The notes beneath the pieces were generated by a model. The model was not told the origin of the DNA. It was given only the letters and a program-made list of their open reading frames with translations, and ran no database searches. Both the position numbers and the translations under genes were made by a program. Positions 24,778-39,115 of a DNA stretch of 64,000 nucleotides are shown in pieces; position 1 is the first letter of the stretch; each line of letters begins with the position of its first letter. Origin of the DNA: Alphaproteobacteria bacterium (GTDB taxonomy: Bacteria; Pseudomonadota; Alphaproteobacteria; UBA2136); NCBI GenBank assembly GCA_047635695.1, contig JBLILN010000001.1, forward strand, positions 46,559 to 110,558, read 5' to 3'.

Positions 24778-25248
24778 TTACAACTTGTGTTGTGTTGTGT
24801 AGTCTTTACTTGTAAGAACGTGCTGACGTGCTTTTCTGGTACGGCTGTCAATAAGCAGTGGCGCACGTAAGTTAGCTGTTAGGTAGTATGAGTCTTCTTG
24901 GTCATACATAGTAAGGATAACCATCAGTTGAGTTGACTCTTTGCTCATGCCCGCTTCTTTAAGCGCCTTTGCAACGTCTTCGTCTTTAATTTCAAGGCCG
25001 AGAATTTTTGGATCGGCAACGAGGAAGCCAATTTCAGGTTCGTTGACGCACTGCAAAAGCATAATTGGTGATTCGTCAGCGTTTGGAAGCTTACAAAGAC
25101 CAAAAGTTGTGCATTCGTTAAAGCCTAATAGGCCTTTGTCGAAGCTGATAAGGCGGTCTTCGCGAAGTGTAACTTCACCAAAACGTGTATCATAGTTTAA
25201 TGCTTTATCTACTGGAACTTTTTGTTCTGTTAATGTTGTTTGTTGCAT
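24778..25248 (-). CDS. fliW: flagellar assembly factor FliW
   Basis: 156 aa. FGLCKLP...MLLQCVNEPEIGFLVADP fits the FliW family. AGGAG SD. It lies 4 nt after csrA. Confidence 0.8.
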   Translation of the reverse strand: MQQTTLTEQKVPVDKALNYDTRFGEVTLREDRLISFDKGLLGFNECTTFGLCKLPNADESPIMLLQCVNEPEIGFLVADPKILGLEIKDEDVAKALKEAGMSKESTQLMVILTMYDQEDSYYLTANLRAPLLIDSRTRKARQHVLTSKDYTTQHKL

Positions 25249-25252
25249 ATGG

Positions 25253-25483
25253 CTACTCCTTGTTTTTTATGCTACTTAGCAATTTGCTAATGTCACCTAC
25301 ATTGCTGGCGGCAACTTTGTTCTCTTCTTGAATTTTCAAGTAGAGTTCTTTACGGTAAACTGTATTGCCTTCTGGGTATTCAAACCCAAGCTTTACACGT
25401 CCACCGCGTACTTCAACAACCGTAATTTCGATGTTATCGTTAATTACAATCGATTCGTCTGTACGCCTGGTTATAAGGAGCAT
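25253..25483 (-). CDS. csrA: carbon storage regulator CsrA (FliW-binding type with C-terminal extension)
   Basis: MLLITRRTDESIVINDNIEITVVEVRGGRVKLGFEYPEGNTVYRKELY is closely similar to Bacillus CsrA, including the extended C-terminus. Confidence 0.85.
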   Translation of the reverse strand: MLLITRRTDESIVINDNIEITVVEVRGGRVKLGFEYPEGNTVYRKELYLKIQEENKVAASNVGDISKLLSSIKNKE

Positions 25484-25570
25484 TTTTTATGTTTTTCCAT
25501 ATTATTTTGAACAATTAGCTATAGTTTTACCAAATAAAAGGAACCACGGCTAGTTTTTGTTCATTTGCTC

Positions 25571-28335: not shown

Positions 28336-28352
28336 TTAGATTACATGCAAGC
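28336..28352 (-). promoter_or_regulatory. sigma-54 (-24/-12) promoter upstream of flgK
   Basis: Minus strand reads cTGGCACaaggcTTGCAtg, a perfect TGGCAC-N5-TTGCA, about 40 nt upstream of the flgK ATG. Confidence 0.55.
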
Positions 28353-28410
28353 CTTGTGCCAGTTTTGTTGATAAGGGCGAAAAACGCCGCTATTTCGTCT
28401 TAAAACAATA

Positions 28411-28458: not shown

Positions 28459-28716
28459 TTATAAGGCAGGCCTAATATGGTATGTTATAATTCTGATTGT
28501 CTTTCTCCATAGCCAACCCCCACTTTCTTTATAAGGCATATCTGAAGACATGATCACAGTATAACCTTCATTTTCTAAGGTCTTGATTATGTCTTTGTTG
28601 CTAAAGCTGTAGTTTACAGGTTTAGGTAGAAATGTAAGTGTGACGGAATCTTTTAATTGAGTTTTAAAACTATCAATAACGTCTTGTGTAATATCCGTTA
28701 TTTTTGGTGCTTTCAT
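28459..28716 (-). CDS. hypothetical small protein P1 (GxWxWKK family)
   Basis: ATG 28716 with AGGAGAG SD, 85 aa. The C-terminus YKESGGWLWRKTIRII is shared with P2/P3. Confidence 0.5.
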   Translation of the reverse strand: MKAPKITDITQDVIDSFKTQLKDSVTLTFLPKPVNYSFSNKDIIKTLENEGYTVIMSSDMPYKESGGWLWRKTIRIITYHIRPAL

Positions 28717-28844
28717 AAATTCTCTCCTAAAGAGGAATAAAAAGAGATGTGCAAAAAGCATGATGTTTTGCATATAAAATGCGGTTATAACTAATAAATA
28801 GTGCTTTTGTGCTGTATTTTAAGGGGTAGGGGACAAAAAAACAC

Positions 28845-28870
28845 CCTGCTGCCGCAAGGTGTTTTTCGTT
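28845..28870. terminator. rho-independent terminator after the flgI-rod binding-flgN unit
   Basis: aacaccctgc-tgcc-gcaaggtgtt with T-runs on both strands. Confidence 0.5.
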
Positions 28871-28974
28871 GAGAAAAAACTTTAATATCTTTATAAGCCC
28901 TCGCCTTCGTATGTTTAAAATAAAACAGTAGTGCCAGTGGGCTTAATCAGATTAAACGCGGTGCGTTTATGCGT

Positions 28975-29409
28975 TTAAATGTCTTTGTTAACAAGCTTCG
29001 TTGAAGGTTGGTGTTGGTTCATTGTACCTGTTTTGCCATAAGTGTTGGCTTTTGGTTTTTTAATTTCAACAGCTGTACGTACAAGGTTTAAAAAGTCATT
29101 TGTCACGGTGTAGGCGGCTTGCAAAAGTGTTATGTTTTTGCGTGCAGCTGACTGGTAATTGTCAATACATGCTTGTAGCTCAGGCATTTTTGCGAGCGCA
29201 CCTTCATCGGCTTTAATTTTGTGCACAGATGTTTTAATGGTGGAAAGTAATTTTTCAACTTTAGCGGCAAGGTGACGCTTTTCTTTGATTTTACCTTCAA
29301 TAGCATCCATGTCTCTGTCTTTAAGCAGAGCATTTTCATCATGTAATAAAGTTGCAAATTTTTCACATGATTCTATTGTGTTCGATACAAGTTCTATGGC
29401 ATGGCTCAT
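28975..29409 (-). CDS. FlgN-like flagellar chaperone (putative)
   Basis: 144 aa, helical. It lies downstream of flgI and the rod-binding gene, in the position FlgN occupies. SD AGGAGA. Confidence 0.45.
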   Translation of the reverse strand: MSHAIELVSNTIESCEKFATLLHDENALLKDRDMDAIEGKIKEKRHLAAKVEKLLSTIKTSVHKIKADEGALAKMPELQACIDNYQSAARKNITLLQAAYTVTNDFLNLVRTAVEIKKPKANTYGKTGTMNQHQPSTKLVNKDI

Positions 29410-29738
29410 TGGTTGTTCTCCTGTATTTTAAGTAATTGGTCGTAAATGGTATCGGCTATGCCAATGCCACCGGCTTTTGTCATGGCATCCGCAACATGTT
29501 CGTTGCGAATTTGACGAAACATTTCTTCACCCTTACCACCATCAAAGCCTTCAGCTGTACCTGGGTCGGTCAGTTCGAGCATTTGATAGAGAAAGAATGA
29601 TTCAAAGTCATGGGCGGCTTTTTCGGCCTTTTCAGCAGAGCTCTTACTTGGCGCAAGGAACTTAACACTACTTGCGCGCTGAAGTTCTGGGGCACTTCCG
29701 TATTGTTTGTTGGCTGTCGCTGTACTGAGTATATCCAT
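29406..29738 (-). CDS. flagellar rod-binding protein (FlgJ N-domain-like)
   Basis: 110 aa. FESFFLYQMLELTD is the hallmark of Rod_binding/FlgJ N-terminal domain proteins. Confidence 0.7.
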   Translation of the reverse strand: MDILSTATANKQYGSAPELQRASSVKFLAPSKSSAEKAEKAAHDFESFFLYQMLELTDPGTAEGFDGGKGEEMFRQIRNEHVADAMTKAGGIGIADTIYDQLLKIQENNQ

Positions 29739-29753
29739 GGGTTCATACCTTTC

Positions 29754-30875
29754 TTACATAATCACTATTTCTGCTTGCAATGCGCCTGCAGATTTGATGG
29801 TTTGTAGAATACTAATAATGTCGCGTGGTGACACACCAAGGGCGTTTAAACCATCGACAAGGTCGGCAAGGTTTGCACCGCTATCGATAACGTGAAACTT
29901 TGCTGTCTCTTCATCAACTTCAATGGCTGTGGCTGGTACAGCGGCAGTAATACCGTCGCTAAAGCCGTCAGGTTGAATAATGTCAGTCAACTCTGTGACA
30001 CGAATGTTTAAGTTGGCATGTGAAATGGCGACATCACTAATTTGTACGCCAGCACCCATAACAACAGTACCTGTTTTTTCGTTGATAATAATTTTTGCGG
30101 CTGCGTCAGGGCGCACATATGTATTTTCAATTTTGTGAATGATAGGTACCAAGTTGTCACGTAAAGCAAGTGGAACGGCAATGTCGATTGTTTGGTTGTC
30201 TAAAGCTTTGGCAATAGGCTCGTTAAATGTTTTATTGATAGCGTCTTTTAAGCGTAATGCCGTTGTAAAATCGGGGTTACGTAGGATAATGCGTAGTCTT
30301 TTGCTGTCAGATAGTTCGTGGCCTGTTTCCATTTCAATAGTGGCACCGCCAGCAATGTGACCAGATGTCGGGTGGTTTTTTGTCACCGTACCAGCTCTAC
30401 CTGTTGTGGTGAACCCACCAATAACCACAGGGCCTTGCGCAATGGCGTAAGTTTGGCCGTCGGCAGCAATAAGAGGGGTTGCTAAAAGTTGTCCGCCTTC
30501 AAGAGATTTTGCGTCACCCAGTGAAGAAGCTGTAATGTCAATTTTACTACCTTGACGGGCATAAGAAGGCATGTTGGATGTGATCATCACAGCAGCAACG
30601 TTTTTCGTTTTAATTTGTGCTTCGGCAGCCTTGGCGTTGACGCCTAGCTTTTCGAGCATGTTAATTAACGTTTGGCGTGTGAAGGGAATAGAGTTTGCAC
30701 TGTCGCCTGTGCCGTTTAAACCAACCACAAGGCCATAACCGATAAGAATGTTACTACGAACACCTTCAAAGTCGGCAATGTCTTTAATGCGTGAAACAGG
30801 GTTTGAGGCAAAGCTTGAACCCGCCATTAGGCAAATCATAACTGTGGTTGTGAAAAATCTTATCATTTTTTTCAT
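29754..30875 (-). CDS. flgI: flagellar P-ring protein FlgI
   Basis: 373 aa with a signal peptide and IGYGLVVGLNGTGD. Confidence 0.9.
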   Translation of the reverse strand: MKKMIRFFTTTVMICLMAGSSFASNPVSRIKDIADFEGVRSNILIGYGLVVGLNGTGDSANSIPFTRQTLINMLEKLGVNAKAAEAQIKTKNVAAVMITSNMPSYARQGSKIDITASSLGDAKSLEGGQLLATPLIAADGQTYAIAQGPVVIGGFTTTGRAGTVTKNHPTSGHIAGGATIEMETGHELSDSKRLRIILRNPDFTTALRLKDAINKTFNEPIAKALDNQTIDIAVPLALRDNLVPIIHKIENTYVRPDAAAKIIINEKTGTVVMGAGVQISDVAISHANLNIRVTELTDIIQPDGFSDGITAAVPATAIEVDEETAKFHVIDSGANLADLVDGLNALGVSPRDIISILQTIKSAGALQAEIVIM

Positions 30876-30886
30876 AGTGTTAACCC

Positions 30887-31084
30887 TTATCCGTTCAATA
30901 TTACTTGTGTTTTGTTTTCCATAATAGACACAAGGTTGTTATTGCGTGCATCAACCGCAAAAGCTGATGTGAGTGTGAGAACAATAATAAAAACAGTACC
31001 AAACACGGTCATGATCTGTTCTTTTTTCTGCGCTGTTAAAGGCTTTTGCTTGTCTAAGTTTTTATACAATTCTAATAGCTTCAT
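30887..31084 (-). CDS. small membrane protein (first gene of the flgI operon)
   Basis: ATG 31084 with GGGAGA SD, 65 aa and one TM helix. It lies 11 nt upstream of flgI. Confidence 0.4.
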   Translation of the reverse strand: MKLLELYKNLDKQKPLTAQKKEQIMTVFGTVFIIVLTLTSAFAVDARNNNLVSIMENKTQVILNG

Positions 31085-31124
31085 CTTTTTTCTCCCCAGA
31101 AAGTTTATCTTTACGAAGGGATAT

Positions 31125-31140
31125 ATGCATATGCCGTGCC
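31125..31140 (-). promoter_or_regulatory. sigma-54 (-24/-12) promoter of the flgI unit
   Basis: Minus strand TGGCACggcatATGCA, about 43 nt upstream of the ATG at 31084. Confidence 0.5.
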
Positions 31141-31184
31141 AAAACACACTTATACGCCGTTTATTTATAAATAGAGCCAAAAAA

Positions 31185-31212
31185 AAGCCCCCTAAAAGGA
31201 GGCTTTGCCAAA
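31185..31212 (-). terminator. rho-independent terminator after P2
   Basis: Minus strand agcctcc-tttta-gggggct followed by T8. Confidence 0.5.
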
Positions 31213-31232
31213 AATGGCTTATTCGAACGGTT

Positions 31233-31562
31233 TTAATTTTCAGTGGGTTCTAAGGGCTTTGTCCACGCAATAGCGATGGTATAAACTTGCTTTTTCCAGA
31301 ACCAAGAACCTGTTTGCGTATGGCTTACGTGTGCCGATATATCGGTTAGGTTTAATTTAGAAATTTTATTTTGAACATAGTCATCGTAAGCTTGGCGAAG
31401 TTCTTCTGTTTTTGCGTGGTTGTTAAATTTAAATTCCAATGCAAGGTAGCTACCGAGAGAGCTTTCGTCTCTAGTGTTTTCCTGTATTTCAATGAGGTTG
31501 CTGTCTATTCTGACTTTACCATGGGCTTCATCGATAACAATGCTATTTGTAATTTTAGACAT
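31233..31562 (-). CDS. hypothetical small protein P2 (GxWxWKK family)
   Basis: 109 aa. YLALEFKFNN...TGSWFWKKQVYTI is homologous to P3 over about 55 aa and to P1. Confidence 0.5.
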   Translation of the reverse strand: MSKITNSIVIDEAHGKVRIDSNLIEIQENTRDESSLGSYLALEFKFNNHAKTEELRQAYDDYVQNKISKLNLTDISAHVSHTQTGSWFWKKQVYTIAIAWTKPLEPTEN

Positions 31563-31571
31563 AATTTTCTC

Positions 31572-31955
31572 CTAAATTTCAGTTTCAACATCAGTGATGT
31601 CGGACGTTCTTTTAATAGCGTTGACTTCAAGAACAAAAAAATGTTCTTTCCACCATAAAATTCCAGTAGAGAGAATGCTTACGCTAGACTTTATTTCCAT
31701 CTTCAAGTTTTGATTTTCAATATGAGTTTTTAGGTGATCTTCTAACATTTCAGCTTTAATTTCGGGGTAGCTGCAGTTATTAAAAAAATGTGAATATTTT
31801 AAATATTTTGAGCCAAAGCCTGAGCGGTGGTCAAAATCACTCAGCTTTTCAACTATTTCTTCTATATAGTTATACTCTTCTTTAGAAAGCCTTATAACGC
31901 TTTCATTGAAGGAACGGGCGCATCGTGGCTCAGTTATATTCATCGATTTCTTCAT
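31572..31955 (-). CDS. hypothetical small protein P3 (GxWxWKK family)
   Basis: 127 aa. YLKYSHFFNN...STGILWWKEHFFVL. It lies 9 nt upstream of P2 and overlaps P4 by 4 nt. Confidence 0.5.
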   Translation of the reverse strand: MKKSMNITEPRCARSFNESVIRLSKEEYNYIEEIVEKLSDFDHRSGFGSKYLKYSHFFNNCSYPEIKAEMLEDHLKTHIENQNLKMEIKSSVSILSTGILWWKEHFFVLEVNAIKRTSDITDVETEI

Positions 31956-32404
31956 AATTTTCTCCCTGCTGGAGGTGGTGAGCTGGGCTTTTTATCGCCT
32001 AAAAATTTAGTTAGGGTGTCGGCGCTGTTGGGTTTGGGTAATTGAACCTCGAATACAAAAAGGTAACTATTGGTGAGAAATGTAAATAAGATAAAATCTT
32101 TGCGCTGACGTTGCTTAAAAAAATCTATTACTATAATGCCTTTGTTTATAAGTTGTTGGACTAATGTATCCTCAAATAAATTTGCTTTATTAATAGGGCA
32201 GGCGCGGTCACTGAAATTTGCGCTCATATAAACGTATTCAGATACATCTTTAGACGTCTTTAATTCTTTTAAAGCAGTTTCAGCGAATTCATCAATGGAA
32301 TCAGTGTCTTTTATGCTCATTAAGGGTTTTTTGTCGCCCTTTTGTTTTTTGATATTGGTTATAGTATTACCCTCCGTTAAAGGGTGTTTTGATTTTGAAA
32401 TCAT
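31952..32404 (-). CDS. hypothetical lysine-rich protein P4 (first gene of P4-P3-P2 unit)
   Basis: ATG 32404 with AAGGAGA SD. Lys-rich N-terminus, hydrophobic FILFTFLTNSYLFVFEV core and a proline-rich tail. Confidence 0.45.
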   Translation of the reverse strand: MISKSKHPLTEGNTITNIKKQKGDKKPLMSIKDTDSIDEFAETALKELKTSKDVSEYVYMSANFSDRACPINKANLFEDTLVQQLINKGIIVIDFFKQRQRKDFILFTFLTNSYLFVFEVQLPKPNSADTLTKFLGDKKPSSPPPAGRKL

Positions 32405-32431
32405 AAATTTTCTCCTTATGGGAGATGTATG

Positions 32432-32452
32432 GTCACTATGAAAAATAGTGAC
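32432..32452. promoter_or_regulatory. perfect 8-bp inverted repeat GTCACTAT-N5-ATAGTGAC upstream of P4
   Basis: It lies 15-35 nt upstream of the P4 SD. It is an operator-like palindrome or a 5' UTR hairpin. Confidence 0.35.
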
Positions 32453-32641
32453 GTATAAAAAGAATATGTGTGTATGTTGTGTACAATATGGCATTTATAC
32501 TGCTTTTTCAAGTGTTTTATGTAAGCTTTTTAGTAAAATTGCTTGCATATACTTTTTTTTATGTTACTTTCGCTTTACCTGCATGCGTCGGAATGTATGT
32601 TGGCTTGTGATTAATCTCTCTTATATTGAGGAAAATGGAAA

Positions 32642-32857
32642 ATGAAAACAGGTATCCACCCAGACTACCACACTCTTAACATTGTTATGACTGATGGCAC
32701 AAAATTTACAACACGCTCAACATACGGTAAAGATGGTGACGAAATGCGTCTACAAGTAGACCCATTGACACACCCAGCTTACACAGGTAAACGCCGTGAG
32801 CTAGATACTGAAGGTCGCGTAGATAAATTCCGTAACCGTTATGGTATGAAAAAATAA
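32642..32857 (+). CDS. rpmE: 50S ribosomal protein L31
   Basis: [30 protein letters not shown]... is a canonical L31. Confidence 0.9.
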
Positions 32858-35511: not shown

Positions 35512-35883
35512 CTAGGCTTTAAGTAAGGCCACTAATTCTTCTGGTATGGCATAATTTGGCTGTTTTTTGATAGTCTGTACACGCTGTACAAGCCCTGTTT
35601 TGTGATGGATACGGATATCCATGGCAATATAATAAGGTAGCACTTCATTATAAAATATACTTAACATCTGGCTTGAAACAATTTCAGGAGTACTTTTTTC
35701 ATGCCCTGTTTGTGATTTTTTAAACCAGTCTACAAATGTTTTTTCGGTGATAATTTCTCGGTCGGGAATATACTGAATCAGTACACTCGCATCGTCAAAA
35801 TTTAAAAACCCAAGTTGTTTAAAACTTAATACAACACTTTCACCACGTAAGGGGTTTGAAATTTGCTTATTCTTAAGCGGCAT
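35512..35883 (-). CDS. hypothetical protein downstream of cheR
   Basis: 123 aa with an ATG start. No family recognised. Confidence 0.4.
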   Translation of the reverse strand: MPLKNKQISNPLRGESVVLSFKQLGFLNFDDASVLIQYIPDREIITEKTFVDWFKKSQTGHEKSTPEIVSSQMLSIFYNEVLPYYIAMDIRIHHKTGLVQRVQTIKKQPNYAIPEELVALLKA

Positions 35884-36938: not shown

Positions 36939-39053
36939 TTATATTGTTACCTTGTATTGGTGTGCTTTATTTACGATCAAAGATAACGGTTTTTCTGCAT
37001 GCGCCTGTTCTTTTTTAATGTGAATATCACCCGTCATATCTAGCTTTTCTAAGGTTTGTCTAACAACTGATTTTATACCCTGTACATGTTCTTCTTCTAA
37101 AGGTGTACCTGTGCTTAGTTTAAGCTGAATATCACTTTTTTGTACAAGGCCATCAATTTGAATGGCACCCATGGCTGTTAACTCTAGGTGGACAATAAAC
37201 CGTGTGTTCTCAGCATGACCATCCTCATCTTCTTGATTGTGCCAGAAAAAACCACCTTGCCTGGGGTCAGCGTCCTCGCCTTCTAAATAAGGGAAAAGTA
37301 GGGCACGCCAACTTTCTGGTTGTTCGCTATTTTTTTGTGTGGTGGCTTGTAAATTTTTTATATCTGCTGAAAAATCGATTCCCAGTGCCTTAAGTAAGTT
37401 TAATGTTTCTTCGCCTGCAAGGCGCTTCATGGACTTTGTGTTGACGGCATCAATAAAGCTTATCAAATTCGGTAAAAAAGTTTCTTTTTCTAAATTAGGT
37501 AAGTTGTTTTTCAATTGCTGTCCATCGCTGGGGCTTGCATATTTGAGAGCATTTAAACTTTTAAGGAGTGTGCTCCACTTGTTGGCCATATGGGTGAGTG
37601 TTATGGCCTGTGAAACGGTTTGCGGTATTTGTGTCTGAATAATTTCTGGCACGCCGTCTTCTGCAATCATGACCGTTACTTTGGCACCAATAGGTATGGC
37701 TGTTTTTGCCTTCACGTCGATGATTTTACCGTCTGCGAATGATAAAGTTATTTTACCATCGCCTTTTTGTTCTGTCACAGTGCCACTATGTTGGCTACCA
37801 GGTTTAAATGGAAGTTGGCTTTGTTGCTGATGATGTTCTTGTTGCCCTTTGGGCTGTATAAATGTTTGTGCGGAATGCCTAGAGCCTGTGGCTGTTTCGT
37901 TGTTTACTTTAATAACCTGCACGCCACCTGTTTTGTCTATTTTAATAGTCATTTCAGAACCTTCTGCTATATTTGTTTGGCTTGTTAGGGAGAGTTTTAT
38001 ACCACCTGACGTCACGGCTTTATGCGTAAATTGTGCTAAAGCCGTTGTTTTAACCTCACCAAGCGTCAATGTTTTTGTTTCAATTAAGTCGGGCTGTTTG
38101 ACTGCACCTGATATTGTTTTTATGGTGAGCTCAGCACCTATGGGTAGGTTTTTTTCAAAGCCTGTGATTTTTGTGCTTAAAATGATGGACTGCGCTTGCG
38201 TGCTTGAAACTTGAGGTAAGACGACTTCTTTGGTGGCAAGTACCGCGACATTTTTTGGTGGCGTGATATCTAGTATTTCACCTTTGCCTGATACGATGTT
38301 CATTTTAATAACGGTACCAGTTGGCACGACCGTTGGAAATTTGGCCTGAAAAGGCGGTATGTTTTTGAGGGCACCGTCAGAAGCCGTTATCGTTAACAGA
38401 GCGTTGTTTTGTGGTTGCAGTGTTTGCAACCCATTATCGGGTTTAGATACCACAACAGTGACAACACCGTTTGCATTTGCGAGTACTTGCCCTTTAGGTA
38501 AAGTGAGGGCAACTTTTTGTCCTATAAGTGGACGTAGCTGTTTGAAGGGATCATCTTTATGGACTTCTGCAACGTTTGTTGCGCTGGATTTTAACAATGC
38601 GTCCGTGAGTTGAGGTTTATTTTCTGCAAGAAGGGTAAGTTTGCTATTGGGTGCTGTATTTTTACCTTGTGTGAGTAAATCACCGAGCTGTTTGCCGCCC
38701 GCTTGCTTTTGTTGGTTAGACCCCATGTCTTGTTGTTTTTTATCACTCGTTTCTTTGCTGAAATTATCAACAACCATGGCGGTTATTTTGTTCTCACCGC
38801 TTTTCATAGAGATGAATGAAATAGGGCTACCAATTTTAGGTGCAGGCGTTATTTTCGCTTGAAGGGTTTGACCGTCTTTCAGCTGAAGTTTGTAATGCCC
38901 GTTCGAGTATTTTTCAATCACTTTCGAATTGACTGTTTTACTCTGTAAAGATTTAGGAATGGGTTTGCTGAATTCAATTTTAGCATCGGCTGGTACTTTG
39001 CCACTTGAAGAACGTGGTACATGTGGTGCTAAGTCGTTATCAATATGAACCAT
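36939..39053 (-). CDS. flagellar hook-length control protein FliK-like
   Basis: 704 aa. The Q/K-rich central region has repeated Gx(V/I)x beta-segments. The C-terminal segment RFIVHLELTAMGAIQIDGLVQKSDIQLKL...VRQTLEKL fits the FliK C-terminal (Flg_hook) pattern. Confidence 0.6.
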   Translation of the reverse strand: MVHIDNDLAPHVPRSSSGKVPADAKIEFSKPIPKSLQSKTVNSKVIEKYSNGHYKLQLKDGQTLQAKITPAPKIGSPISFISMKSGENKITAMVVDNFSKETSDKKQQDMGSNQQKQAGGKQLGDLLTQGKNTAPNSKLTLLAENKPQLTDALLKSSATNVAEVHKDDPFKQLRPLIGQKVALTLPKGQVLANANGVVTVVVSKPDNGLQTLQPQNNALLTITASDGALKNIPPFQAKFPTVVPTGTVIKMNIVSGKGEILDITPPKNVAVLATKEVVLPQVSSTQAQSIILSTKITGFEKNLPIGAELTIKTISGAVKQPDLIETKTLTLGEVKTTALAQFTHKAVTSGGIKLSLTSQTNIAEGSEMTIKIDKTGGVQVIKVNNETATGSRHSAQTFIQPKGQQEHHQQQSQLPFKPGSQHSGTVTEQKGDGKITLSFADGKIIDVKAKTAIPIGAKVTVMIAEDGVPEIIQTQIPQTVSQAITLTHMANKWSTLLKSLNALKYASPSDGQQLKNNLPNLEKETFLPNLISFIDAVNTKSMKRLAGEETLNLLKALGIDFSADIKNLQATTQKNSEQPESWRALLFPYLEGEDADPRQGGFFWHNQEDEDGHAENTRFIVHLELTAMGAIQIDGLVQKSDIQLKLSTGTPLEEEHVQGIKSVVRQTLEKLDMTGDIHIKKEQAHAEKPLSLIVNKAHQYKVTI

Positions 39054-39098: not shown

Positions 39099-39115
39099 GG
39101 CAAAAAGAGTGCCAA
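39099..39115 (-). promoter_or_regulatory. sigma-54 (-24/-12) promoter upstream of fliK-like gene
   Basis: Minus strand tTGGCACtctttTTGCCat, about 49 nt upstream of ATG 39053. Confidence 0.5.

Follow-up and report, generated by a model that had tools for sequence, protein, structure and literature searches.

Small cytoplasmic proteins encoded inside the flagellar gene clusters of Alphaproteobacteria include FlaF and FlbT, which regulate flagellin synthesis. Flagellar export chaperones such as FlgN, FliS and FliT are all-helical, and FlgM is largely disordered. Here we describe four genes, P1 to P4, from the flagellar block of a 64-kb stretch of contig JBLILN010000001.1 of an alphaproteobacterium of the UBA2136 lineage (64,000 nucleotides (nt), the whole of which is referred to as the window). 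The products of these genes resemble FlaF and FlbT in being small cytoplasmic proteins encoded inside an alphaproteobacterial flagellar cluster, although the window organism has a FliW-CsrA pair downstream of flgL instead. They also resemble FlgN, FliS, FliT and FlgM in their similar size range and in their place near flgK and flgL, and P1 sits where flgM/flgN-type genes often lie. In their evolution, the P genes are like ORFan families grown by tandem duplication, with which they share a narrow range, low GC content, fast divergence, copy-number variation and the lack of detectable relatives. ORFan expansion is a phenomenon and not a functional family, however, so that this likeness describes how the P genes evolved and gives no mechanism.

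By sequence comparison, P1, P2, P3 and P4 are one real paralogous family of four members. It has not been described before and constitutes a new protein family; the phenomenon itself, the expansion of a small gene within one lineage, is an ordinary one. The reading that we favour, if only somewhat, is that P1 to P4 are diverged copies of a lineage-specific gene for a small, soluble alpha/beta accessory binding protein, whose link to the flagellum is positional.

A paralogous family and its distribution

The four genes are listed below, with product lengths in amino acids (aa).

28459-28716, minus strand: P1, 85 aa, shortened and set apart from the other family members; open reading frame (ORF) with a ribosome-binding site (RBS); motif SGGWLWRK
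31233-31562, minus strand: P2, 109 aa, the final gene of the P4-P3-P2 operon; motif TGSWFWKK
31572-31955, minus strand: P3, 127 aa, at the hub of the similarity network; orthologous to the gene that relatives carry in single copy; motif TGILWWKE
31952-32404, minus strand: P4, 150 aa, the most diverged paralogue, with Lys-rich N- and C-terminal tails and without the W-W-K motif; shares the RBS string of the family

P3 and P2 are separated by 9 nt, and P4 and P3 overlap by 4 nt (ATGA). These spacings, the gene coordinates and the position between the flgK and flgI units had been given in a preliminary description of the DNA, and all are present in the sequence. That description saw a triplication, with P4 as a separate Lys-rich unknown. 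Profile searches instead identify P4 as a fourth, motif-less paralogue, and since P4 belongs to the family too, the event is a quadruplication.

Similarity is readily seen between P2 and P3, which align at 30% identity over 79 aa, a longer alignment than the roughly 55 aa first noted (BLASTP expectation value (E) 3e-6, or 2e-5 in the comparison of all members), and which find each other by reciprocal phmmer at E 3e-5 to 8e-5 among the 621 six-frame ORFs of the window. P4 is matched by P3 in BLASTP at E 0.03, by a profile of P3 and its orthologue at E 0.005 and, once P2 and P1 are added to that profile, at E 0.0012; in every leave-out profile test it is the first match outside the training set (E 0.0012-0.013). 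The similarity of P1 to P2 is marginal by alignment (BLASTP 2e-4 to 1e-3, phmmer 0.06-0.15), and P1 is tied into the family by this similarity together with its W-rich motif and the shared RBS string. Homology to P3 and its orthologues over the predicted alpha-beta-alpha-beta-beta core places P2, P4 and the two orthologues introduced below (P0007 and that of locus L005) in the family.

The RBS string, GGAGA[AG]AATT(T)ATG (13-14 nt), has exactly four occurrences in the 64-kb window, both strands counted, each at the start codon of a P gene. The sequences upstream of P1 and P4 are loosely alike, as are the two terminators, and this likeness suggests that the whole unit was copied. The string also bears on the start of P1, which the NCBI annotation opens at an ATG at 28773 (104 aa, MQNIMLFAHLF...), whereas the Logan gene call gives 85 aa. 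Because the shared string lies at 28714-28727 and the Logan call agrees, the annotated start is probably 19 codons too long and the real start is at 28716. For annotation, the points of use are this probable correction to the start of P1 and the grouping of P4 with P1 to P3.

A relaxed form of the C-terminal motif, [ST]G.[WL][FLW]W[KR][KE], is confined to P1, P2 and P3 among 52,224 six-frame ORF residues and was found in none of 300 shuffles. The exact form originally proposed, [ST]G-x-W-[FLW]-W-[KR]-[KE], holds for P1 and P2, while P3 (TGILWWKE) departs from it at position 4; for these three proteins the motif survives alignment. Because it is degenerate in the closest orthologue, P0007 (QGMLFWKS), and absent from both P4 and the L005 orthologue, the W-W-K motif marks a subgroup of the sequences compared and does not define the family.

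When 1.84 billion representative proteins were searched exhaustively with an HMMER profile, only seven matched: five own copies, one spurious repeat protein and one true homologue, P0007. Among the own copies are two from another metagenome-assembled genome (MAG) of the same population, namely a P2 with a frameshift and an over-long P1. The repeat protein (P0006, 495 aa, E 2e-6) was rejected as a homologue because short repeated matches add up to its score, its hhalign probability is 6.6%, and many unrelated Pfam models also matched it. Word-index searches with P3, P0007 and P1 found nothing but the queries themselves, and an exact look-up of P2 and P3 in the contig index returned no record. 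Every database copy of the family is named 'hypothetical protein', and a search of the literature yielded nothing relevant to the family.

In the second MAG (locus-tag prefix ACI8QY, 3,070-bp contig), the P2 product is 85 aa long, starts in another frame and rejoins P2 at ...EELRQAYDD. The difference implies an insertion or deletion at an A-rich run near P2 codons 50-53 (window positions about 31404-31415), which may be an error of the assembly or a genuine frameshift.

P0007 (124 aa) matches P3 by BLASTP at E 3e-17 and is encoded in a Tara Oceans MAG labelled 'uncultured Magnetococcales', at a locus (L001/L003, hereafter L003) that is fully syntenic with the window. The family alignment is too divergent for pattern building, and FlgI and FlgN were used as synteny anchors. 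The FlgI anchor led to a second relative, 'Proteobacteria bacterium UBA2136' (L005, FlgI 78% identical), whose syntenic ORF of 114-116 aa is matched by the family profile at E 1.8e-6 and by P3 at E 9e-6. The P3 orthologue was also placed in the syntenic slot of the relatives by tblastn. L003 and L005 each have a single copy, with rpmE on one side and the sigma-54 promoter of the flgI operon on the other; in both, the flgN-flgK intergenic region measures only 119-182 bp and lacks P1. Across the databases searched, no member of the family lies outside one uncultured marine lineage; genomes of this lineage carry the label Alphaproteobacteria or Magnetococcales.

Between the window and L003, the P3 orthologues are 30% identical while 15 neighbouring proteins are 54-96% identical (FlgI 85%, FlgN 75%, the 65-aa ORF 69%); against L005 the corresponding values are 23% and 34-92%. 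The P gene therefore evolves fastest in the block, beyond even the poorly conserved FlgN and FliJ. Such extreme divergence, together with the low GC content of the P genes (32-38%, versus 41-49% for flagellar genes), the frameshifted P2 of the second MAG and the poor structural model of P1, could indicate that the P ORFs are not genes, and either arose by chance in AT-rich intergenic DNA or are pseudogene copies in decay. We regard this as very improbable, given that an intact ORF of similar length has been kept in the slot in three genomes diverged at neutral sites, with the protein similarities reported above (E 3e-17 and 9e-6). Each ORF also has a strong, correctly spaced Shine-Dalgarno (SD) sequence, the junctions are operon-like and the terminators dedicated, and a fold is predicted for P3 at moderate confidence from an alignment of four sequences.

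Because both relatives are single-copy and have an empty flgN-flgK slot, amplification of one ancestral gene to four in the window genome would be the most economical history. Two local tandem duplications of the unit would have produced P4-P3-P2, now one operon, and a third copying event, over about 2.5 kb, would have put P1 into the flgN-flgK slot. Each copy would have taken its translation-initiation region along, and P1 probably its promoter and terminator too. The same slot is occupied differently on metagenome contig LULX01010799.1 (L016), from a close UBA2136 relative, where a 91-aa ORF with a GGAGG RBS is found at 941-1216 on the plus strand. This ORF has no similarity to the P family and no Pfam match, and no sigma-54 promoter is visible between it and flgK. 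That an unrelated ORF fills the slot of P1 suggests that intergenic slots of the flgN-flgK type simply tolerate small insertions.

Transcription and the flagellar setting

The transcription signals around the P genes are as follows.

28434-28414, minus strand: intrinsic terminator of P1; its hairpin resembles the terminator behind the single-copy orthologue of L003
31206-31184, minus strand: intrinsic terminator that closes the P4-P3-P2 operon, directly followed by the sigma-54 promoter of the flgI operon; L003 and L005 are arranged alike
28347-28361, minus strand: sigma-54 promoter of flgK-flgL, a perfect match, just past the P1 terminator and conserved in both L003 and L005
31127-31141, minus strand: sigma-54 promoter of the flgI operon, with 1 mismatch, just past the P2 terminator and conserved in both L003 and L005
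32483-32511, minus strand: candidate sigma-70-type promoter of the P4-P3-P2 operon, TTGAAA-17-TATTGT, 9/12, a consensus match only
32432-32452, no strand assigned: palindrome GTCACTAT-N5-ATAGTGAC, perfect over 8 bp, with 5 nt between its arms; it lies in the P4 leader, about 30 nt before the start

On the minus strand, P4-P3-P2 is followed by a sigma-54 promoter and the flgI operon, which comprises a 65-aa membrane ORF, flgI, a rod-binding (FlgJ N-domain-like) gene and flgN. P1 comes next, a monocistronic insertion with the flgN terminator on one side and the sigma-54 promoter of flgK on the other, and after that promoter lie flgK, flgL, csrA and fliW. Upstream of P4, rpmE is divergent, and beyond rpmE are cheW, fliI, fliJ, cheR, flhG, flhF and flhA. 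All four P copies are inside this fliW-flhA flagellar block, which also holds housekeeping genes, with rpmE adjoining the P genes and cytochrome bc1 just past fliW.

Each run of P genes ends in a terminator of its own, as previously described, and the terminators behind P2 and P1 are those listed above; the single orthologue in L003 and L005 also has its own terminator. No sigma-54 site was found on the coding strand upstream of P1 or P4, and inspection by eye revealed no sigma-28-like match upstream of either gene. At the place corresponding to the candidate promoter, L005 has TTGACA-16-TACAAT, matching the sigma-70 consensus at 11/12 positions, and a scan upstream of the L003 gene found no sigma-70 promoter. 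The ancestral gene was a stand-alone unit with its own terminator, outside the sigma-54 flagellar operons, and it probably had its own promoter.

The perfect palindrome before P4 was correctly reported but is unremarkable, as about nine perfect 8-bp hairpins are expected by chance in a window of this size. It is possible that it acts as a 5' untranslated region hairpin or an operator. A conserved operator was rejected because the palindrome is absent from the L003 and L005 loci. CsrA sites in the P4 leader were likewise dropped: the single GGA is the SD, and there is none in the hairpin loop.

Predicted fold and possible functions

None of the six members (P1 to P4 and the two orthologues) has a transmembrane segment or a signal peptide-like segment. 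An AlphaFold2 (AF2) model of P3, computed from the alignment of the four paralogues, has a mean predicted local distance difference test score (pLDDT) of 70 and a predicted template modelling score of 0.59. Its order of elements is alpha-beta-alpha-beta-beta, with a helix at residues 25-44, a strand at 49-59, a helix at 64-81 and the hairpin strands at 85-97 and 103-114. The W-W-K motif is located just past the hairpin turn, where it opens the last strand. The P proteins are predicted to be soluble, cytoplasmic and small, with an alpha/beta fold that is held at moderate confidence.

Structure prediction and a Foldseek search had been suggested in the preliminary description as checks on the family; run on P3, they produced no confident structural relative, with nothing in the PDB at E <= 0.001. 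The best PDB matches are the Alba-family structures 1vm0, 1nfj and 4z9e (E 0.02-0.07, probability 0.69-0.95, template modelling (TM) scores 0.4-0.5), and BFVD returned uncharacterised phage proteins only, at low TM-scores. Alba, SpoVS, Pop6/7 and IF3-like domains appear in the match lists of both structure methods, together with many other two-layer sandwiches. The P3 model shares with the Alba, SpoVS and IF3-C-like folds the helices on one face of an antiparallel sheet and the long C-terminal beta-hairpin, although we consider it a generic two-layer alpha/beta sandwich whose likeness to Alba and IF3-C is weak and topological only.

If the P proteins were nonetheless nucleic-acid binders of the Alba/IF3-C type, with a flagellar role or without one, they would bind RNA or DNA through the W/K hairpin and, in P4, the Lys-rich tails, and the palindrome of the P4 leader would be an operator or hairpin for autoregulation. 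Such a role would fit the Alba-family structural matches, the basic isoelectric points (pI) of four of the six members (P1, P4, P0007 and the L005 orthologue, 8.5-9.4, with P4 at 9.4) and the position of a perfect palindrome between the putative promoter and the RBS. Given that P2 and P3 are acidic (pI 5.7 each), that the palindrome is unconserved and compatible with chance, and that no sequence signal connects the family to Alba or SpoVS, we judge it improbable.

No curated family, solved structure or annotated protein explains P1 to P4, which agrees with the initial impression that they are not recognisable flagellar structural proteins and belong to no recognised family. Searches of Pfam with P1 to P4 and the two orthologues and of NCBIfam with P1 to P4 gave no family match, profiles of five and six members found nothing in the PDB by sequence below E 0.5, and the six members matched none of the PADLOC anti-phage defence models at E <= 0.1. 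FlaF (PF07309) and FlbT (PF07378), which had been named as families that could explain the genes, gave no match in Pfam-A (six members) or NCBIfam (P1 to P4) even at E <= 1-10 and were rejected, as were FlgM, FlgN, FliS, FliT and FlaG; neither database gave a match to these or to FliW. In contrast to the all-helical export chaperones, to which the family has no sequence similarity, P3 is predicted to form an alpha-beta-alpha-beta-beta sandwich. A chaperone of the FlgN/FliS/FliT type was rejected on the three long beta-strands of this model and on the presence of a separate FlgN gene at 28975-29409 (PF05130, E 1.2e-10), and an anti-sigma-28 factor of the FlgM type on the lack of a Pfam match and the predicted folded alpha/beta structure. 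HPF/YfiA (Ribosomal_S30AE, the 'sigma-54 modulation protein') was also rejected, as it is matched by P2 only, over 31 residues at 13.4 bits (E 0.14), where the gathering score is 23.7.

Among phage families in PHROGs, P1 residues 16-60 give a marginal match to positions 23-67 of the 72 positions of phrog_7409 (E 1e-4, 23 bits). This phage family of unknown function matches P1 but not P2, P3, P4 or either orthologue, and the other members have no match or match differing PHROGs at E >= 0.09. No phage relatives were found by tblastn against 50,697 phage genomes or in scans of IMG/VR contigs.

A regulatory, chaperone or export-substrate role had been proposed from the position of the genes. Such a role is possible, but the stand-alone unit, the housekeeping neighbours, the fast divergence and the ORF in the slot of L016 make the inference from position a weak one. 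Stated in full, the proposal is that the P proteins are flagellar accessory factors, namely regulators, chaperones (of FlgI, the P-ring protein, or of an exported subunit) or export substrates, with the paralogues serving different clients. They keep their place beside the flgI operon in three genomes, all copies lie within the fliW-flhA block with each unit just upstream of a conserved sigma-54 promoter, and their small size is typical of chaperones and regulators. However, they have their own terminators and sigma-70-like promoters and are not members of the sigma-54 operons, and their divergence is far above that of every flagellar neighbour. Position itself carries little information, because synteny at this short evolutionary distance extends over the whole block, rpmE and cytochrome bc1 included. 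The searches for FlaF, FlbT, FlgM, FlgN, FliS, FliT, FlaG and FliW were negative, the predicted alpha/beta fold is unlike that of the all-helical export chaperones, and an unrelated ORF occupies the slot of P1 in L016. We consider a flagellar accessory role unlikely, though its probability is not negligible. Quite unlikely is the more specific possibility of a fast-diversifying, flagellum-associated factor of this marine lineage, for example an Alba-like modulator, binding RNA or protein, of the adjacent sigma-54 operons or of their products (the FlgI P-ring or the FlgK/FlgL junction). Were the family truly flagellum-associated, the four paralogues could reflect different flagellar clients or an arms race, for example with flagellotropic phages.

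We favour the positional reading, in which the genes would encode non-structural accessory binding proteins that are transcribed apart from the sigma-54 flagellar hierarchy and evolve under weak or diversifying constraint. What is conserved would be the hydrophobic core and a long beta-hairpin whose strand after the turn is aromatic and basic (G-x-hydrophobic-hydrophobic-W-K/R). This strand may form an interaction surface, with another protein, a second subunit or nucleic acid as the partner. The flagellar link would be positional, as local duplication and permissive intergenic slots could explain the clustering as well as function does.

Several points weigh against this reading. The comparison covers only three genomes, and the direction of the copy-number change could be gain here or loss in the relatives. 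The promoter calls are consensus matches only, at 9/12 in the window and with none in L003. The membership of P1 does not reach significance by alignment alone, and its AF2 model (pLDDT 51) is uninformative on the fold. The proposed binding surface is drawn from a model of moderate confidence and from a motif missing from two of the six members. Finally, the presence of four copies inside the flagellar block, with both units directly upstream of sigma-54 flagellar promoters, would fit a real flagellar function too.

On the positional reading, the P family would be a clean, well-bounded case of a common event, in which a small lineage-specific gene is amplified locally and diverges far faster than its neighbours. 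The contrast between four copies and one in close genomes offers a natural comparison. The family would be more important if its members were true flagellar accessory factors; such small factors have usually been found by genetics in model organisms, and we know of none from this uncultured marine group.

Other features of the block

About 80 nt upstream of rpmE (window 32560-32641, plus strand; rpmE 32642-32857) are near-identical in the three genomes, unlike the rest of the intergenic region between rpmE and the P genes. The counterparts lie on the minus strand at about 7104-7190 in L003 and about 7131-7215 in L005. Two hairpins are predicted by RNAalifold: a conserved one (CCUGCAUGCGU...AUGUAUGUUGG), in which one pair is compensatory, and another that pairs UCUCUC with the GAGGA Shine-Dalgarno sequence. 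The leader has no Rfam match at gathering thresholds. The leader, which precedes the gene for ribosomal protein L31, is a candidate L31 autoregulatory element.

The ORF that opens the flgI operon behind the conserved sigma-54 promoter in all three genomes (window 30887-31084, minus strand; L003 7793-7990; L005 7826-7996) encodes a protein of 56-65 aa with one hydrophobic segment. The window protein is 69% and 42% identical to those of the two relatives, and the ORF has no Pfam or NCBIfam match. It may encode an unrecognised small membrane component of the flagellum.

Following flgK-flgL on the minus strand are csrA (about 25256-25486) and fliW (24778-25248). CsrA is the most conserved protein of the block, being 96% and 92% identical to its counterparts in the two relatives. 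The window order flgN-(P1)-flgK-flgL-csrA-fliW resembles the Bacillus-type order, flgN-flgK-flgL-fliW-csrA.

Between fliJ and cheR, a 123-aa ORF (35512-35883, minus strand) is 54% and 40% identical to its counterparts in the relatives and unrelated to the P family; its only Pfam match is a sub-threshold, QueF-like one (E 0.0045). Between cheR and flhG lies a gene for a 704-aa protein (36939-39053, minus strand), which contains no Pfam domain and shows 56% and 34% identity to its counterparts in the relatives. Directly upstream of this gene, at 39100-39114 on the minus strand, is a perfect sigma-54 promoter, TGGCACTCTTTTTGC, and the gene is probably sigma-54-dependent.

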